Below are positions 22,581-31,437 of a stretch of DNA of 64,000 nucleotides, piece after piece. A program made the position numbers and the translations under genes. The notes below the pieces were generated by a model. That model searched no databases. It had not been told where the DNA came from and worked only from the letters and a program-made list of their open reading frames with translations. How positions within the stretch are numbered: the stretch's first letter is position 1; each line of letters begins with the position of its first letter. Source of the DNA: an uncultured Clostridia bacterium (GTDB taxonomy: Bacteria; Bacillota; Clostridia; TANB77; CAG-508); NCBI GenBank assembly GCA_944392605.1, contig CALXXE010000005.1, forward strand, positions 7,289 to 71,288, read 5' to 3'.

Positions 22581-23279
22581 ATGGAAGAAAACAATGAAGA
22601 GAAAAAGAATCAAGAACAAAAAAATGAAGCAATGATACATAAAGATAATTCTTTAAATAGATTAGATTTGTCATTTATAAAACATATTGATTTAAAAGAA
22701 TATAAATTATGTAATTTGTTAGCTTATTGGATTTATGATTTCGCTAATTATCATGATCAGGAAAGAGAATTTGATACAACTAAAATGATTACTTTTAAGC
22801 GTGGAAATATTATAAAGGCAAATTTAGGATTTAATGTTGGACATGAATTAGGTGGATTACATTATTGTATTGTTTTAGATAAAATTGATAATCCTAAAAA
22901 TGGAACTTTAAATGTAATACCATTAACTTCAAAGAAAAATAAAAAATATCCAAAATCTGCAATAGACTTAGGAAATGAAATTTTTGATACATTAAATGCT
23001 TTATATTCAAAAGAAATTAAAAAATTGTCTAATAAATATCAAGATATATGGAGTCTTCCGGCTGAAAGAGTAGAACAGTTTACATCTGATTTTGAATATG
23101 TAAAAAAGATAAAAGATGAAATATCAAAAATGAAAATAGGAAGTGTTGCTCTTATAAATCAAATAACCACAATAAGCAAACAGCGAATATTTGATGATGA
23201 TATTCTAAGAAGAGTTCGCTTATCTAAAGATAGTCTAGATTTATTAGATAAGAATATTATAAAATATTTTACAAAATAA
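22581..23279 (+). CDS. Oversized PemK/MazF-like toxin-fold protein (232 aa) with an N-terminal extension and an internal insertion
   Basis: FKRGNIIKANLGFNVGHELGGLHYCIVLDK..LNVIPLTSKK and the C-terminal GSVALINQITTISKQRI parallel the MazF blocks GD.....F....G.E..G.RP.LV.. / ..V.PLTS / S.....QIRTIDK.RL. No MazE-like ORF lies upstream. Confidence 0.55.
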   Translation: MEENNEEKKNQEQKNEAMIHKDNSLNRLDLSFIKHIDLKEYKLCNLLAYWIYDFANYHDQEREFDTTKMITFKRGNIIKANLGFNVGHELGGLHYCIVLDKIDNPKNGTLNVIPLTSKKNKKYPKSAIDLGNEIFDTLNALYSKEIKKLSNKYQDIWSLPAERVEQFTSDFEYVKKIKDEISKMKIGSVALINQITTISKQRIFDDDILRRVRLSKDSLDLLDKNIIKYFTK

Positions 23280-23760: not shown

Positions 23761-24561
23761 ATGATTATCCGGAGAAACGTTGTGGTGTCAGAAGATGATA
23801 ATCGCTATTCCAAGAAGTTCGTGAATCCAGTAATTCCTGATGGGTATCGGCATGTGACTGGTACTGACTGGAAGACTGGTTTCCAAATTGAAAGGATTAC
23901 AGACGGAAGTTTGTTTGAGTTCGTGCCTGTGGGATGCTTGAAGAGTAATGGAACTCTGGATGGAACAAACTTCAATGAGAAGTTTGGAAGAAGGAGGTTC
24001 TATCCGGACAATTCAGATGAACTTGGCGAGGAGCCAATACATGGAACTATGAACCTTCTTTGGAATCAACTCCAAAGTGTCAGAGAGTATGGAGGCTTTT
24101 ATGTAAGCTGTGCAATTTCAAGGTCTAAGGCCTTGAAGCCGATTTCCATTCCAGGTAGGCAGCCTTGGACAATGGTCGATTTTGACCATGCAATGTACTT
24201 GGCAAGAAACTTTGAGCCCAAGAAGGACTTTAGCAGTCATCTTCTTTTCGGTGCAGAGTATGACTCTATTCTTGAATGGCTCATCGAATCAGGCAAGATG
24301 ACGTCTCAAGAGGTCACAGAGCAATGCGATTGCATAAGCTATGGAAGAATCTATGATGGCAACATTATGGGTTTTGGGACTATAGCTGAGTGGACGCAGG
24401 AAAAGGCTATAAAAGGAACAAAGGCAAAGCCTGCAGTTCGAGGAACTACGCTAAAGATGGATGGTACTACGAATCCTCTAGCGTGGAGACAGGAAACTCA
24501 GAAGTACATAAAGAGACCTTATATAGGTTTCCGAGTGGCTCTCTTCATCCCCATAGTTTGA
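23761..24561 (+). CDS. FGE-sulfatase (SUMF1/EgtB/PvdO)-like domain protein, compositionally foreign
   Basis: PWTMVDFDHAMYLARNF, LLFGAEYDSILEWL, GNIMGFGTIAEWTQE and the terminal PYIGFRVAL follow the FGE-sulfatase pattern (W..V.W..A..Y, LPTE.EWE, GNV.EW, .GFR.). RBS aaaggag. G+C is 24/60 and 29/60 in the first two 60-nt blocks, against 18/60 in neighbouring genes. Confidence 0.55.
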   Translation: MIIRRNVVVSEDDNRYSKKFVNPVIPDGYRHVTGTDWKTGFQIERITDGSLFEFVPVGCLKSNGTLDGTNFNEKFGRRRFYPDNSDELGEEPIHGTMNLLWNQLQSVREYGGFYVSCAISRSKALKPISIPGRQPWTMVDFDHAMYLARNFEPKKDFSSHLLFGAEYDSILEWLIESGKMTSQEVTEQCDCISYGRIYDGNIMGFGTIAEWTQEKAIKGTKAKPAVRGTTLKMDGTTNPLAWRQETQKYIKRPYIGFRVALFIPIV

Positions 24562-24572
24562 TGCCACAAATT

Positions 24573-24610
24573 AAGCCCCTGGTGTACCAGGGGCTTTGCT
24601 ATTTTATTTA
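24573..24610. terminator. GC-rich hairpin terminator between convergent genes
   Basis: aagcccctggt / accaggggctt (11 bp) followed by a T-rich tract. Confidence 0.75.
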
Positions 24611-25453
24611 TTTTAATTCTTTAAAGAAATGATATTCTGTTCCAGAAGTATTTTTACCTCTATATGTATAACCATCATATATTCCACCTAAGTCAATATC
24701 AAGTTTCATATTATATGCAAATTTTTGATTTAAGTTATTTACAATGTGAATTGTAAAATTTAAAGTATAATTAATATCTTCTAAATTTATACCAACTTCT
24801 TGTAAAACTTTTCCGTTAAAAGAAACAGAGCTTGAATCACTAGTAACAGAATAGTTTGTTAATAAGTCTTTGTTCAAGAATCCTAAAGAAATAGGATTAG
24901 AACAATCAGTATAAAATGTTGGTTCATCATAATTATGGTTTTCATTTTCATTATTAGTATTTACTATATTGAAATCAATTCTACCATTTTCTGGACTCGT
25001 TATATCTTGATATTTACCAAAGTTTAATGGATTTTTATAGTTTAATATTCTTGTGCCATTTTCAGATTTAGCATCCACCGAAATATTATCAATATATAAT
25101 TCTTTTACAGTATTTTCATCAGTTAAATCAGAAACTGTTTGACTATTATCCAGATAAATAGAAATGTCAGTATATTGTGAGATAGACATATTGCTTAAAG
25201 ATTGATCCTCTGAGTTATCAATTGCATTAGCACTATTGTATAATAATATTCTTTGTACACTAAAAATAGGACTCTCATTTTCTTCAGCTATTTCTACCAT
25301 TTGATTTGCGAAGTTGTTTTTAGCAAAAGCATCAGCAAATACAAAGTTATAGTATAATATTAACAATATAATTGCTAAAACAATTAAAATAACAAAAGCT
25401 AGTTTTACATTTTTTATTTTAAACTTAAACTTTTTCATAGAGTGTAATTCCAT
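24608..25453 (-). CDS. Hypothetical membrane-anchored/exported protein
   Basis: 281 aa with an N-terminal TM segment (VKLAFVILIVLAIILLILYY) and an Asn/Ser-rich extracellular part. Co-oriented with the hydrolase gene just upstream of it (25481-26908); the first codon is uncertain. Confidence 0.5.
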   Translation of the reverse strand: MELHSMKKFKFKIKNVKLAFVILIVLAIILLILYYNFVFADAFAKNNFANQMVEIAEENESPIFSVQRILLYNSANAIDNSEDQSLSNMSISQYTDISIYLDNSQTVSDLTDENTVKELYIDNISVDAKSENGTRILNYKNPLNFGKYQDITSPENGRIDFNIVNTNNENENHNYDEPTFYTDCSNPISLGFLNKDLLTNYSVTSDSSSVSFNGKVLQEVGINLEDINYTLNFTIHIVNNLNQKFAYNMKLDIDLGGIYDGYTYRGKNTSGTEYHFFKELK

Positions 25454-26908: not shown

Positions 26909-27103
26909 AGCTTTACTCTCTTTCCTCATAAAATAATACACATTTATTATATAATAACAATTTAATTATGTCCACACCTTTTGTCAAAAAATCTACTATT
27001 AGAAGAAATTACTAACTAATAGAAGGCATATTTTGGGTAAACTATTGTTAGATGCAAATGTTTTATGGTAAAATGTAGAAAAAAGTAAAAGGGAGAAATT
27101 AAT

Positions 27104-27388
27104 ATGTATATACCAAATCCTATTGATACAAGCAATATAATTTTAGATGAAGAAATACTTAAGTTAGCAGATTTGCTTGCAAAAAATACTCATGAAATAT
27201 GGTCAAGAAATAGAATTGAAGAAGGTTGGACTTATGGAGCGGAAAGAAACGATGAAAAAAAGACTACTCCTTGTCTAGTATCCTATGAAGAGCTTCCAGA
27301 AAATGAAAAAAAATATGATATAGATACCTCACTAGAGACGTTGAAATTAATAAAAAAGCTTGGATATAAGATAGAAAAGGAGGTATAG
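27104..27388 (+). CDS. Stand-alone RyR (ryanodine-receptor repeat) domain protein, 94 aa
   Basis: LAKNTHEIWSRNRIEEGWTYGAERNDEKKTTPCLVSYEELPENEKKYDIDTSLETLKLI matches the RyR-domain consensus (H..W...R...GW.YG......K..P.LVPY..L...EK..D). RBS aaagggag. Confidence 0.75.
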   Translation: MYIPNPIDTSNIILDEEILKLADLLAKNTHEIWSRNRIEEGWTYGAERNDEKKTTPCLVSYEELPENEKKYDIDTSLETLKLIKKLGYKIEKEV

Positions 27389-27391
27389 AAG

Positions 27392-29218
27392 ATGCAAACA
27401 TGTTTTTTGATAGCTGTGATAATTACGATAGCTAGCATTATAGCTGTTTTTAAATATAAAGAAAACGCAAAAACTAAAATCGTTATAATGATAATTTCTT
27501 CAATTGTATCATTGTCAATATTAGTATTTCCACTAATAGAACAAGAAAATGTTGTTTTTAAAGTTATGAATTCGTTTTTTTATGCTATACAAAGTATAGG
27601 AATAAATCAAGATTTATCTTTAATATCTAGTATAGATTTACATACTTTACAAGGGATAGTATATTCTTTTTATATGTATTTACTTTTCTTGGCATTACCT
27701 GTTTTGACAGCTAGCGTTATTTTAATAGTTTTAGGTGATATATTTGTTAAAATAGAATTTGCCTTAAATAAAAATAAAAGACTTTATATTTTTTCAGAAA
27801 TGAATGAAAAATCATTAATGGTTGCAAAAAGGATTTTAAATAGAAAAGGAAATAATGCAAAAATAGTTTTTGCAAATTTTGATAGAGAAAAAAATAAGGA
27901 AAATATAAAAGCAATAAGGATATCAAATAGTATAGTAAACATAAAAATAGGAGATGAAAATAAAGTAACTTTTTATTTAATTTCCGAGAATGAAGAAGAA
28001 AATCTAGAAAATGCTTTAGAATTAATTACAAAATATCATAAAAGAGAAAAAACTAAAATATATGTAGTAAACAATTCAGAAGTTGCCACAATAATTTTAG
28101 ATTCCACAGATAAAGGAAAAATAAATGTAGAAATTATAAATGAAACTGAAAGAATGATTTATGATCTTTTAGATAGAATACCATTATATTTAAATTCAAT
28201 AAATGATAAAATATCTGTATTAATAGTTGGTTGCGGAAGAGTAGGTCAAGAATTTTTAAAAACAATTGTATGGTGTGGCCAAATAATCGGATATGAATTA
28301 GAGATAAATGTTATAGACATAAATGCTGATAAAATTAAAGAAGAAATAAATATAGAACAACCAGAACTTTTAGAAAATTATAATATAAATTTTATAAATG
28401 CAGATATTAAGTCTAAAAATGCAAGTGAAGAGATAGAAAAGCTATCAGAAGTAAATTATATATTTGTATCAATGGAAAGCGATGAAAAGAATATTGAGAC
28501 AGCAATTTTACTTAGAAGAATGTTCTTAAGACAAGATAAAGATGGGTTTAATAGACGTCCGATAATTAATTTATGGATAGACAATGAGAATAAGAAAGAG
28601 AAAATAAATGGACTAGTAAATGAAAGAAATAATTCATACAACTTAAATGCGTTTGGAAGTATTAAAGATATGTATTATGATAATTGTATAATAAATTCAA
28701 AATTAGAAAGCTTAGCAAAACAAGTTCATTTATCATACAGTCCAAAAGATGTTAATTTGAAACAATATAATTCATTGGAATATAATAAATGCTCTTCTAG
28801 AGCAACTGCACTTCATTTAAAATATAAATTATATTCTGTTTTAAGAGAAAAATATACTAACAATATAGAAGAAGATTTAAAAAATTATGAAGAGATTGCA
28901 AATGATAAAATAGTAGAGGAATTAAGTGAGAATGAGCACGAAAGATGGAATGCTTATACAAGAAGTATTGGATATACAAAAAAAACTATAGAAGAAGTAA
29001 AAAGTTATATAGAAAACACAGGGGATTATAGACATTTCTTAGCAAAATTCCATCCAGCTCTTGTAGAATATGAAGAGTTAGATAAAGTAAGTGAGGAACT
29101 AAATAAATTAACAGGAAAAGAGATTGATTTAAAAGAAAGCGATAGAATGATTATTAGAAATATACCAAATATCTTTAAAAAATATATTAAAAGGGGAGTT
29201 GTAAAAGGTGAAGAGTGA
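27392..29218 (+). CDS. Membrane protein with a Rossmann-type NAD(P)-binding fold and a C-terminal RyR-like domain
   Basis: 3-4 TM helices in aa 1-120. GxGxxG at VLIVGCGRVGQEF. The C-terminus ENEHERWNAYTRSIGY..FHPALVEYEELD resembles a second RyR-type repeat. Starts 4 nt after the gene 1 stop. Confidence 0.6.
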   Translation: MQTCFLIAVIITIASIIAVFKYKENAKTKIVIMIISSIVSLSILVFPLIEQENVVFKVMNSFFYAIQSIGINQDLSLISSIDLHTLQGIVYSFYMYLLFLALPVLTASVILIVLGDIFVKIEFALNKNKRLYIFSEMNEKSLMVAKRILNRKGNNAKIVFANFDREKNKENIKAIRISNSIVNIKIGDENKVTFYLISENEEENLENALELITKYHKREKTKIYVVNNSEVATIILDSTDKGKINVEIINETERMIYDLLDRIPLYLNSINDKISVLIVGCGRVGQEFLKTIVWCGQIIGYELEINVIDINADKIKEEINIEQPELLENYNINFINADIKSKNASEEIEKLSEVNYIFVSMESDEKNIETAILLRRMFLRQDKDGFNRRPIINLWIDNENKKEKINGLVNERNNSYNLNAFGSIKDMYYDNCIINSKLESLAKQVHLSYSPKDVNLKQYNSLEYNKCSSRATALHLKYKLYSVLREKYTNNIEEDLKNYEEIANDKIVEELSENEHERWNAYTRSIGYTKKTIEEVKSYIENTGDYRHFLAKFHPALVEYEELDKVSEELNKLTGKEIDLKESDRMIIRNIPNIFKKYIKRGVVKGEE

Positions 29219-31295
29219 TGTATTTATTAGTTATAGTTCAAAAGAATATGAAACAGCAAATATAGTAAGACAAACATTAAAAAGTAATAAAATAAAATGT
29301 TGGATGGCTCCTGAATCCATACCAGCAGGTTCTAATTATTCAAGAGAAATACCTAAAGGAATAAGAGAATCTCAGATTTTTTTACTTATATTATCTAGCT
29401 CATCTCAGGACTCAATATGGGTATCAAGAGAAATAGACCAAGCTTTAAATGAAAGAAAGATAATAATTCCTTTCCAAATAGAAGACTTTAAGTTGAATGA
29501 TTCTTTTAATTTTTATTTGAGCCAAGTGCAGAGAATTACAGCATTTACACAGCTACAAGATTCATTAAATAAGCTAGTCGAAAAGATAAAAGCAATTATA
29601 AATATAGAAAATGACAATAATACTGCTAATGAAAAGAAACAAGACGAAAAAGTTGTAAAACAACAAACAAAACAAAGTAAAAATACCATATATGATAATG
29701 GTGATATATATGAGGGAGAGTTAGTTGATGGCAAAAGAAATGGAAAAGGCAAAATGGAGTATGCAAATGGAGACATATATGAAGGATTATTTAAAAATGA
29801 TTTAAAAGCTGGAAAGGGTAAAATGACTTATGCAAATGGTGACATATATGAGGGATTTTTTGCAAAAGATAAACCAAGTGGAAGAGGAAGATACATATAT
29901 GTAAATGGCAATTACTATGAGGGATATTTTGCAGATGGTAAGTTTAACGGAAAAGGTAAGCTTAGATATGTTAATAGGAATATATATGAAGGAACCTTTG
30001 AAAACGGTTTACGAAATGGTGAAGGAAAACTTACATATTTTACAGGTAATGTATATGAGGGACAGTTTGATAAAGACAAAATGAATGGAAAAGGTAGAAT
30101 GACATATAATAATGGTAATGTATATGAAGGGGAATTCAAAGACAATAAACCTTGTGGAAAAGGTAAAATGGTTATTAAAGATTTAGGAGTATATGAAGGA
30201 GAGTTTTGTAAAGGAAAATTCAATGGAGAAGGTATGTTAAAAACAGAAAATGGTATTGTTAAAGAAGGAACATGGGAAAATAATAATTTAATTGGGCGAA
30301 TAAAACATACAGATAAAGATGGAGTAATAACCTTTGGAAATTGTACTTATAATGAAGTTGATAAAACTTATAAGTTAGTTTGGGAAGATATTGTAGATAG
30401 TTACGAAGGGCAAATGATGTATGGTTTATATAATGGAAAAGGAATATACAATTATGAAGATGGAACATATTATGAAGGAGATTGGAAAAATGGTTTAAAA
30501 GAAGGAAAAGGCAAAGCAACATATGAAGATGGAACATATTATGAAGGTGACTTTAAAGATGGAATAAGAGAGGGAAAAGGAAAATACGTATATAAAAATG
30601 GAACATATTATGAAGGAGATTTTAAAAATGGAACAAGTGAAGGAAAAGGCAAAGAAACATATGAAAATGGAAGTTATTATGTAGGGGAGTTTAAAAACGA
30701 CAAAAGAGAAGGAAAAGGAAAATATGTATATAATGATGGAACATATTATGAAGGAGAATGGAAAAATGATAAAAGTGAGGGAAAAGGCAAAGAAACATAT
30801 AATGATGGAAGTTATTATGAAGGTGAATTTAAAAATGGAATAAAAGAAGGAAAAGGTAAATATATATGGAAAGAAGGAACTTGTTATGAAGGCGATTTTA
30901 AAAACGGAGTAAGAGAAGGAAATGGAAAATATGTATATAATGATGGAACATATTATGAAGGAGAATGGAAAAATGATAAAAGTGAGGGAAAAGGCAAAGA
31001 AACATATGAAAGAGGAGGATATTATATAGGAGATTTTAAAAATAATAAAAGAGAAGGAAAAGGAAAACTAGTGGGAAAAAATGGAGAACTTTATGAGGGA
31101 GACTTTAAAAATGGCGTAGCAGAAGGAAATGGAAAAGAAACATTTAGAAATGGAGATTATAGAGAAGGTGAATATAAGGAATTTAAATTATATAATGGTG
31201 TTTATTATAATAAAAAGAGTAATAAAAAAATATATTATGAAAATGGAAACCCTTTAAATAAGATAGAAGCTTTATTTAAAAAGAAGAAAAAATAA
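29208..31295 (+). CDS. TIR-domain protein fused to about 21 MORN repeats
   Basis: N-terminal SDVFISYSSKEYETANIVRQTL...IFLLILSSSSQDSIWVSREIDQAL is a bacterial TIR with a candidate catalytic Glu in WVSREI. Two blocks of 23-aa repeats follow (Y.NGD.YEG.F.....GKGK; I count 9 + 12). The GTG start overlaps the gene 2 end by 11 nt. Confidence 0.85.
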   Translation: MKSDVFISYSSKEYETANIVRQTLKSNKIKCWMAPESIPAGSNYSREIPKGIRESQIFLLILSSSSQDSIWVSREIDQALNERKIIIPFQIEDFKLNDSFNFYLSQVQRITAFTQLQDSLNKLVEKIKAIINIENDNNTANEKKQDEKVVKQQTKQSKNTIYDNGDIYEGELVDGKRNGKGKMEYANGDIYEGLFKNDLKAGKGKMTYANGDIYEGFFAKDKPSGRGRYIYVNGNYYEGYFADGKFNGKGKLRYVNRNIYEGTFENGLRNGEGKLTYFTGNVYEGQFDKDKMNGKGRMTYNNGNVYEGEFKDNKPCGKGKMVIKDLGVYEGEFCKGKFNGEGMLKTENGIVKEGTWENNNLIGRIKHTDKDGVITFGNCTYNEVDKTYKLVWEDIVDSYEGQMMYGLYNGKGIYNYEDGTYYEGDWKNGLKEGKGKATYEDGTYYEGDFKDGIREGKGKYVYKNGTYYEGDFKNGTSEGKGKETYENGSYYVGEFKNDKREGKGKYVYNDGTYYEGEWKNDKSEGKGKETYNDGSYYEGEFKNGIKEGKGKYIWKEGTCYEGDFKNGVREGNGKYVYNDGTYYEGEWKNDKSEGKGKETYERGGYYIGDFKNNKREGKGKLVGKNGELYEGDFKNGVAEGNGKETFRNGDYREGEYKEFKLYNGVYYNKKSNKKIYYENGNPLNKIEALFKKKKK
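30717..30800 (+). repeat. 84-bp exact direct repeat inside the MORN array, copy 1
   Basis: ggaaaatatgtatataatgatgg...ggcaaagaaacatat is identical to 30924-31007. Offset is 207 bp, equal to three MORN units. Confidence 0.9.
30924..31007 (+). repeat. 84-bp exact direct repeat inside the MORN array, copy 2
   Basis: Identical to 30717-30800 by hand comparison. Confidence 0.9.
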
Positions 31296-31310
31296 TTTTA
31301 TTTATTGTTA

Positions 31311-31349
31311 AAAGATAAACTATGGATGGATTTATAGTTTATCTTTTTT
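31311..31349 (+). terminator. Rho-independent terminator ending the RyR/TIR operon
   Basis: 13-bp stem aaagataaactat / atagtttatcttt plus a T-run. Confidence 0.8.
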
Positions 31350-31437
31350 GATTTTTATTATCAGAAAAAGTTAGTAATTGCTTGCAAAATTCACAAAATA
31401 GTATATAATATACATATGTGAGAAAGAAGGTGAAAAA

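Follow-up and report, generated by a model that had tools for sequence, protein, structure and literature searches.

What might a ryanodine receptor (RyR) repeat, a membrane protein and a TIR domain be doing together in one bacterial operon? The question is raised by three co-directional genes on the + strand of a 64,000-nucleotide (nt) stretch of DNA, hereafter the window, from an uncultured Clostridia bacterium (assembly GCA_944392605.1, contig CALXXE010000005.1, positions 7,289 to 71,288). The first of them, g1 (27104-27388; 94 amino acids, aa), encodes a stand-alone RyR protein of the R12 repeat type, an accessory component; g2 (27392-29218; 608 aa) encodes a membrane protein in which a tandem RCK/Rossmann body is followed by an RyR-like domain at the C-terminus, and g3 (29208-31295; 695 aa, GTG start) a TIR domain joined to MORN repeats. 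Thoeris-type immunity is defined by the reader of the TIR-made signal, and each new reader domain has revealed a new chemistry or a new killing mechanism; the link between cyclic ADP-ribose (cADPR) and animal RyR channels has long been debated and, to our knowledge, still lacks a binding site. The answer that we find probable, at a moderate level of confidence, is that the operon is a Thoeris-like TIR immune-signalling system of an undescribed type, with an RyR-domain sensor mounted on a channel-like effector. Judging from the sequences, the effector and the sensor would be best classed as what is new; TIR signalling itself is known.

The evidence that carries this reading is the company that g2 keeps. 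A word-indexed search returned 81 g2 homologs, nearly all of about 590-610 aa and without annotation, and an exhaustive profile search extended the family to at least 1,686 representatives of 50%-identity clusters at E<=1e-30. A single-sequence scan of reference genomes gave 2 loci, and a metagenome scan with the family alignment gave 80, followed by calling of open reading frames (ORFs) and iterated hidden Markov models. A locus counted as informative if g2 had a TIR neighbour there or was flanked on each side by at least 2.5 kb of sequence; 36 such loci remained after redundancy was removed at 90% identity. A bona fide TIR gene lay no more than two genes from g2, on the same strand, in 26 of these 36 loci; two further loci had a DUF4062 protein beside g2, and eight had neither. 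Within the clade at least 40% identical to the g2 of the window, all 11 informative loci qualified (10 with a bona fide TIR, one with DUF4062). TIR genes numbered 46 of 204 within two positions of g2 as against 3 of 261 farther off in the same loci (Fisher p=6.5e-15). The first-pass annotation of this DNA had named genomic linkage across organisms as one of the points on which its proposal could fall, and the linkage held. DUF4062 proteins were tried as TIR-like, on the basis of the Pfam STIR clan; a single-sequence hhalign comparison with the TIR profile gave a probability of 0.9%, and these neighbours, unconfirmed as TIR-like, were counted apart.

The TIR domain of g3 spans residues 1-135 (29208-29612, +) and matched Pfam TIR_2 (E=6e-20) and ThsB_TIR (E=1e-5). 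The catalytic Glu75, in the motif SIWVSREI, is matched by Glu in 42 of the 43 distinct TIR domains that g2 loci encode, and it was invariant in alignment A4, so that the conserved glutamate expected by the first-pass annotation also stood up to alignment. Residues 160-650 (29685-31157, +) form two MORN arrays of about 19 repeats, a proposed trigger-sensing module (E=2e-105), for which Pfam delimited 18 stretches and a regular expression counted 17 + 2 repeats of 23 residues with the pattern YxGxW/F...GxG; the number of about 21 given before was therefore lowered to 18-19. The second MORN block (30435-31067) is at the DNA level a tandem array of nine 69-nt copies with a 75-80% match and super-periods of 138 and 207 nt, and this pattern points to a recent repeat expansion. 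The same block is the place where metagenome assemblies break. Decay of g3 in conspecific contigs was considered and rejected, the interruption in locus L105 being a 100-N scaffold gap and that in L104 a few indels inside the repeat array.

The module that follows the TIR domain changes from locus to locus: besides MORN repeats we found WD40 propellers, LRR_4, BspA-type LRR_5, RHS, a PQQ-like propeller, HD_3 or none at all. Gene order also varied: the TIR gene precedes g2 in some loci and follows it in others. For instance, a 51%-identical g2 homolog had a TIR-WD40 gene immediately upstream, and a 31%-identical homolog the gene of a short TIR protein at the same place. Two TIR genes (TIR-HD plus TIR-LRR) or three surrounded a single g2 in loci L033, L042, L068, L071 and L072. 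Since one g2 pairs with varied and multiple TIR-repeat genes, the arrangement follows the Thoeris-like pattern of several ThsB sensors for one effector. The replacement of MORN by WD40, LRR, RHS or HD in homologous loci left no weight to the analogy with junctophilins, the MORN-repeat partners of animal RyR, that had been drawn for g3. The trio of g1, g2 and TIR-repeat gene recurs in Bacillota and Bacteroidota; a Flavobacteriales locus carries TIR-WG-repeat, then g2, then RyR, and locus L095, from a clade only 46% identical, carries a g2::RyR fusion (homolog P0061), then AbiD, then TIR-MORN.

What could the g2 protein read? Its residues 437-601 (28700-29194, +) form a helical RyR-like domain, the proposed ligand sensor. 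In an alignment of 27 homologs (29-76% identity) E515, H516, R518, W519 and H554 were invariant, and D584 was present in at least 90%. The sole sequence-level match of g2 in the PDB was between its stretch HPALVEYDEL and HPCLVPYDEL of a Bacteroides thetaiotaomicron RyR protein. The meaning of these residues comes from phage proteins. Mycobacteriophage DyoEdafos gp78 (RyDEP), a PF02026 domain, is a glycosidase acting on cADPR-type signals, in which H75 and D117 form a catalytic His/Asp dyad, W78 stacks on the adenine and H100 contacts the phosphates (2026 preprint). Six of eight viral RyDEP homologs bind cADPR-type signals, most of those with the ligand residues bind without cleaving, and direct cADPR binding by the animal R12 repeats is not established (2026 preprint). 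Pectobacterium phage CB1 gp68 (RyR-Tad) binds 3'cADPR at 43 nM, in addition to 2'cADPR and canonical cADPR, through H129/W132, K147/H154 and K170/D171 (a second, independent 2026 preprint). In spacing and context, H516/W519/H554/D584 of g2 match H75/W78/H100/D117 of RyDEP and H129/W132/H154/D171 of RyR-Tad. What g1 and g2 have in common with these phage proteins is the PF02026 domain together with the ligand-contact positions His-x-x-Trp, His and Asp, which are spaced identically in g1 and recur as motifs in g2. They differ in that RyDEP and RyR-Tad are viral and counter defence by destroying or sequestering the signal, whereas g1 and g2 are host-encoded and TIR-linked, and the g2 copy sits on a membrane/RCK body and is on these grounds a presumed receptor.

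For the system that we favour, in which we infer what the signal is, that g2 and g1 bind it, that g2 acts as a channel and that the role is anti-phage, the following sequence of events would apply. The TIR-MORN protein g3 would be both sensor and signal synthase, its repeat array recognizing a trigger that is most likely a phage or envelope component. Its TIR domains would then assemble, and Glu75 would convert NAD+ into an ADP-ribose (ADPR)-derived signal, most likely a cyclic ADPR isomer (2'cADPR, 3'cADPR or cADPR). This signal would bind the His516/Trp519/His554 pocket in the C-terminal RyR-type domain of g2, an effector whose three-pass, P-loop-like membrane domain is presumably coupled through a long helix to the tandem-RCK body. 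Ligand-bound g2 might open or disrupt the membrane, with collapse of ion gradients and arrest of growth, that is, abortive infection. The free RyR repeat of g1 may dock on g2 as an extra ligand-binding subunit, or may buffer or hydrolyse stray signal and in this way set the activation threshold. The earlier proposal of a TIR-made signal, an RyR-type sensor and a membrane effector was strengthened by comparative evidence (linkage, the catalytic Glu, g1-g2 fusion and ligand binding by phage RyR domains), except that g1 turned out to be only an accessory.

The place of g1 in the system deserves attention. It is a full-length Pfam RyR domain (PF02026, E=1.3e-34, 118.7 bits against a gathering cut-off of 27.4) and covers the whole model, in agreement with its first description as essentially a single RyR domain. 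Its residues 2-93 align with the B. thetaiotaomicron RyR-like protein 3NRT (E=3.6e-32), and residues 2-88 align without gaps with repeat 1 of animal RyR (mammalian RyR2, domain E=7e-21); this similarity across kingdoms is unusually high and suggests a horizontal transfer of the repeat. The B. thetaiotaomicron "putative ryanodine receptor" (3NRT, 6UAG) is likewise a stand-alone RyR repeat of about 100 aa, which forms dimers; it differs in having His where g1 has Thr55. The motif H30-x-x-W33 and D72 are present in g1, and RyDEP, RyR-Tad and g1 share the distances Trp(+22)His(+17)Asp, with Thr55 in g1 at the position of the phosphate-binding His of the phage proteins. Among the 120 closest g1 homologs this position was Thr in 61 and His in 54. 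Thr55 was tried as a mark of the small RyR proteins associated with g2, as all seven from our own loci are of the Thr type; this was rejected, as His-type genes also adjoin g2 and TIR genes. The family comprises 2,196 g1 homologs, mostly of 92-100 aa, and relatives are encoded in 254 phage records.

Small RyR ORFs were seven across all fetched loci, and a small stand-alone RyR gene abutted g2 in 3 of 65 mapped non-redundant loci. Because such genes are rare at g2 loci, g1 is an accessory and not a core gene. Its functional tie to g2 is nevertheless strong, because a g1-like RyR domain is fused to the C-terminus of g2 in homologs P0061 and P0071, the trio is found in L095, and three of four sampled small RyR genes on long contigs lay directly beside g2-family genes (hmmsearch E=1e-99, 2e-58 and 4e-34). 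Two of the three loci where a small RyR gene adjoins g2 also hold TIR genes. In the model of the P0061 fusion, the RyR-like domain of g2 and the fused RyR domain align in series onto two-repeat R12 structures, and the fused copy reproduces the B. thetaiotaomicron RyR fold (TM-score 0.83-0.88, 54-56% identity). In contrast, a Thr-type small RyR gene of locus L108 (6001-6291) directly follows gltX as an orphan, with neither g2 nor TIR nearby; some members of the small RyR family are therefore not tied to the g2/TIR system.

This distribution bears on whether g1 is a host signal buffer or off-switch, either a sponge or a RyDEP-like glycosidase, comparable to the ring nucleases of type III CRISPR systems. 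We regard this as possible and somewhat doubtful. Such a role would agree with the retention in g1 of the RyDEP dyad positions H30 and D72 and of the stacking W33 at identical spacing, with the sponge or glycosidase nature of the phage homologs, with the dispensability of g1 in most loci and with the orphan gene just described. However, the natural g2::g1 fusions and the adjacency to g2 in three of four sampled cases argue for a physical association, and in roughly half of the family a Thr occupies the position of the phosphate-binding His, a substitution that could make binding weaker.

With respect to the rest of g2, residues 1-125 (27392-27766, +) make up a membrane domain with three transmembrane (TM) segments, of which TM2 and TM3 are separated by an acidic, amphipathic stretch (49-88). 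Hydropathy and charge analysis gave three clear hydrophobic segments, where 3-4 had been proposed, and the charge distribution puts the loops 21-29 and 119-130 in the cytoplasm; P47 and P103 were invariant in the alignment of 27 homologs. Residues 130-430 (27779-28681, +) comprise two Rossmann/RCK-like domains, the second of which carries GxGxxG and D309 and matched Pfam TrkA_N at 276-378 (24.9 bits against a cut-off of 23.8). There G280 and G282 were invariant, G285 was near-invariant, and D309 was kept in at least 90% of the homologs; because GxGxxG and D309 are retained, the second Rossmann domain may provide a second adenine-nucleotide site. The Rossmann motif and the C-terminal RyR-like repeat described at first were thus both recovered. 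An AlphaFold2 (AF2) model built with the family alignment (predicted local distance difference test score, pLDDT, 89.5; predicted template modelling score, pTM, 0.81) shows an N-terminal helical membrane domain (helices 2-21, 26-48, 54-70, 75-80 and 86-125), the long helix 86-125 leading into two Rossmann domains, and a C-terminal helical domain. Compared with the PDB by Foldseek, the model came closest to the multi-ligand-gated K+ channel GsuK (its ADP complex among the entries), to TrkA and to the CASTOR gating ring, with E down to 1.6e-5 for these three, and to Slo1/BK channels. The modelled architecture resembles a membrane domain attached to a tandem-RCK gating ring, and the topology would be compatible with an M1-P-loop-M2 arrangement.

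GsuK (4gx5), TrkA (4g65), CASTOR (6o7a) and Slo1/BK share with g2 the membrane domain, the long inner helix, the tandem Rossmann/RCK domains and GxGxxG with an acidic residue. Unlike them, and at 10-14% identity, g2 lacks a TVGYG-type filter; it carries one more TM segment at its N-terminus and, beyond the RCK body, an RyR domain. No T-x-G-[YF]-G K+ selectivity filter is present in g2, where the segment between TM2 and TM3 reads SIGINQDLSLISSIDL, with a loosely conserved LNxD. The animal R12 region (Repeat1-2) resembles g2 in joining an R12-type repeat to an ion-channel-like protein and in the implication of cADPR; it differs in that the channel bodies are unrelated, that it has two repeats in one chain, and that the fusion model does not show R12 packing. 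The channel step is less certain than the signalling logic. The proposal that g2 is an ion channel gated by a cyclic ADP-ribose isomer through its R12-type repeat, with the domains of g1 and g2 as the source of the phage RyDEP and RyR-Tad proteins and possibly of the animal RyR repeats, is a tentative one, and we judge it unlikely in this complete form. Tandem g2 paralogs were observed within single loci (L024, L034, L080 and L087), and homolog P0220 (972 aa) has a second Rossmann-plus-RyR module at its C-terminus; the Rossmann-RyR pair acts as a duplicable unit.

Several observations weigh against a Thoeris-like role of the operon. Binding and cleavage of 2'/3'cADPR by PF02026 domains were demonstrated with phage proteins only, and binding by g1 and g2 is predicted by analogy with them. 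The Pfam RyR match of g2 is below threshold (residues 505-574, 17.7 bits against a cut-off of 27.4), and the equivalence of D584 with the catalytic Asp of RyDEP is uncertain, as g2 has insertions there and HMMER aligns the stretch differently. In g1 the replacement of the phosphate-contacting His by Thr55 could weaken binding. An R12-like intramolecular packing of the two RyR repeats in the g2::g1 fusion was also sought and was not supported; the AF2 monomer was confident for each domain, but the R12 targets superposed at a root-mean-square deviation of about 25 Å. The label of channel is taken from the resemblance of a modelled fold, in a protein without the K+ filter. The absence of TIR from eight of 36 loci means that part of the g2 family has other partners or acts alone. 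In PADLOC the operon showed only generic TIR similarity. Finally, the operon is fixed in the species between housekeeping genes, which is atypical for defence islands, and many homologous loci are likewise surrounded by housekeeping genes, such as priA/def/fmt/murD or thrC/trpS/recR.

The last of these points calls for a closer look at the genomic setting, since the first-pass annotation had placed the operon in a variable region beside tRNAs and toxin-antitoxin (TA)-like modules, as would fit defence. This was not borne out. The nearest flanks are an opposite-strand G5-glucosaminidase gene on one side and rnc followed by a radical-SAM gene on the other; the tRNA pair (tRNA-Gly and tRNA-Cys) is 5.2 kb upstream and the only TA-like gene near the operon, a PemK-like ORF, 3.8 kb upstream. 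In a look-up of the identical rnc protein (22 contigs read), the operon was at the same site in all six places shown and no empty-site variant of the locus appeared; it was likewise at the same site in a related Clostridia metagenome-assembled genome whose g2 is 77% identical. Such a position would suit a housekeeping module, with g2 as a cation transporter or channel under RCK regulation that responds to ATP, ADP, NAD or ADPR at its Rossmann and RyR sites, and with the TIR-MORN protein as a regulator of NAD/ADPR signalling at the envelope, for instance during stress, in sporulation or in cell-wall homeostasis. In its favour are the location of the operon between glucosaminidase and rnc and the setting of other g2 loci among genes of the priA/def/fmt/murD or thrC/trpS/recR type. 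In addition, a search of IMG/VR viral contigs yielded no g2 relative, binding of ATP/ADP is known from animal R12 domains (PDB 6uhh, 9l9b), and RCK proteins classically regulate K+ flux. We consider this explanation unlikely nonetheless: the very fast turnover of TIR sensor modules, the varying gene order and the multiplied TIR genes are hallmarks of conflict systems, the MORN array has expanded recently at the DNA level, and AbiD, an IetA-like ATPase, integrases, PemK and a type IV secretion system (T4SS) are encoded among the neighbours at several loci.

How does the system that we favour compare with those already described? No PADLOC model matched g1 or g2, and g3 matched at the generic TIR level only, without ThsA models and weakly to ThsB models; in NCBIfam nothing rose above cut-off for the three proteins. 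The trio was therefore left unclassified by both resources, and the first-pass annotation was right in not recognizing it as a named system. A December 2025 survey defined Thoeris types I-XI and 29 putative types (bioRxiv 10.64898/2025.12.03.692087). As in Thoeris (Ofir et al. 2021; 10.64898/2025.12.03.692087), a TIR with a catalytic Glu stands at g2 loci beside a conserved putative effector with a predicted small-molecule-binding domain; several TIR genes per effector are frequent and membrane-acting effectors common (types II, VI, VII and X). The effectors described in the text consulted are SIR2-SLOG, TM-Macro, SLOG, caspase, DUF2270, DUF6650, SLATT, CMP hydrolase-TPR, TIR-SLOG, ion channel and HIT proteins, none of them RyR or g2. 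Unlike Thoeris, the TIR proteins of g2 loci are large and carry C-terminal repeat arrays, and there is an extra small RyR gene. The accessible portions of both 2026 phage preprints and of the survey make no mention of a host-encoded RyR-domain effector, nor did a wider literature search yield one, and an unnamed listing among the "putative" classes is possible; the passages of the survey at hand contain neither an RyR or TrkA effector term nor any of six JGI scaffold identifiers of g2 loci. The closest parallel is type X Thoeris (ThsK), which pairs a TIR gene with a predicted ion-channel effector; its validated effector, however, is of about 223 aa and stands beside a 165-aa ThsB-type TIR. Homology of g2 to this effector was rejected, as hhalign against the g2 family gave a probability of 1.35%, and a plasmid search with the type X TIR returned only type II (Macro) loci.

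The closest PADLOC matches of g3 were the single-gene candidate PDC-S66 and SAVED-TIR effectors, and this result bears on another explanation, namely that the TIR-repeat protein itself kills as an infection-triggered NADase, as do the TIR effectors of CBASS, Pycsar and pAgo systems and TIR-STAND proteins, with g2 and g1 as regulators or detectors; g2 could for example sense the state of the membrane or of nucleotides with its Rossmann and RyR sites and control the TIR, or the RyR domains could mop up ADPR/cADPR by-products and so protect the cell. An N-terminal TIR followed by C-terminal repeats is also the architecture of single-protein NADase sensors, and GxGxxG with D309 in g2 is typical of NAD/ADP binding, GsuK binding both ADP and NAD (4gx1). 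Even so, we find this explanation quite unlikely, as the occurrence of one g2 with several TIR-repeat genes better fits many sensors for one effector, effectors are classically built as membrane proteins with an invariant ligand pocket (Thoeris II, VI, VII and X), and RyR domains, in phage proteins, bind cyclic ADPR signals at nanomolar affinity. That the three genes are functionally unrelated neighbours with a coincidental combination of domains is barely conceivable, given their translational coupling, the fusions and the adjacency kept across loci at 25-50% identity in two phyla, and chance juxtaposition is dismissed by the Fisher test (p=6.5e-15).

The loci of the g2 family held other neighbours. 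An AbiD/Abi_2 abortive-infection gene (PADLOC AbiD, E=1.4e-51) directly follows g2 in L095 (8099-9040) and L098 (7930-8862), of the P0061/P0066 clade, and stands there between g2 and TIR-MORN or TPR/DUF4062 genes; this arrangement may be a composite system. In distant loci without TIR (L029, 7556-11092, as well as L030, L034 and L047), an FtsH-like protein of about 1,170 aa is encoded immediately downstream of g2. It consists of AAA_2, AAA and Peptidase_M41 domains, its ATPase part matches PADLOC IetA (E=6e-47), DolB and PDC-M37B, and it was present in three of the eight TIR-less informative loci. A hidden TIR was sought in its 255-aa N-terminus, which had no Pfam match and no TIR similarity; the AAA-AAA-M41 protein may be an alternative partner of g2. 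In L106 (339-12279), g2-RyR belongs to a co-directional cluster with a T4SS coupling protein, a ClpP-like protease, transglutaminase-like and RidA-like proteins, two TIR genes and a methyltransferase, perhaps a conflict island of larger size carried by a conjugative element. Proteins with a transglutaminase core are encoded immediately upstream of g2 in the distant loci L071 (4351-5676), L056 (59-5968) and L106 (2618-3679).

In the window itself, according to the ORF calls, 3 nt lie between g1 and g2, and the end of g2 shares 11 nt with the beginning of g3, whose GTG start is preceded by the Shine-Dalgarno sequence AAAGGGGAG; the coordinates given earlier for three coupled, co-directional ORFs proved exact. 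A candidate promoter of g1 (27045-27074, +; TTGTTA, an 18-nt spacer and a TG-extended TAAAAT) came from a consensus scan only and is weak, as promoter-like sites are no commoner here than in shuffled sequence. The operon ends in an intrinsic-terminator-like hairpin with a T-run (31310-31356, +), as had been annotated; its 17-bp stem is A/T-rich and was overlooked by the consensus scanner because that program demands G+C-rich stems. The hairpin (31310-31347) is real, with a minimum free energy of -15.4 kcal/mol and z=-6.2, and none of 200 shuffles folded equally well. A search of the leader and the operon body against Rfam matched no family, thus no riboswitch or structured RNA. Farther upstream, the PemK-like ORF (22581-23279, 232 aa), just past tRNA-Gly and tRNA-Cys, has its PemK/MazF-like toxin domain at residues 73-133 (E=4.7e-12) inside a longer protein. 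Between it and the glucosaminidase gene lie two ORFs without Pfam match (23761-24561, 266 aa, and 24608-25453, 281 aa), which flank the operon also in conspecific contigs L100-L103.

In summary, the tie between RyR/R12 domains and cADPR has so far come only from phage anti-defence proteins (two 2026 preprints). If our reading is correct, the operon would represent a Thoeris type that is new, seems to be abundant in Clostridia and Bacteroidota of the gut and rumen, and is left unannotated by current tools, and it would explain the origin of the phage RyR sponges. It would also offer a tractable bacterial model of ligand gating by RyR domains and a candidate function for the solved but orphan structures of bacterial "putative ryanodine receptors". 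Should the channel reading hold as well, the chain from TIR cyclase to cADPR-type signal, RyR domain and ion channel would already exist in bacteria, and there would be a concrete reason to try cADPR isomers on the animal R12 repeats.

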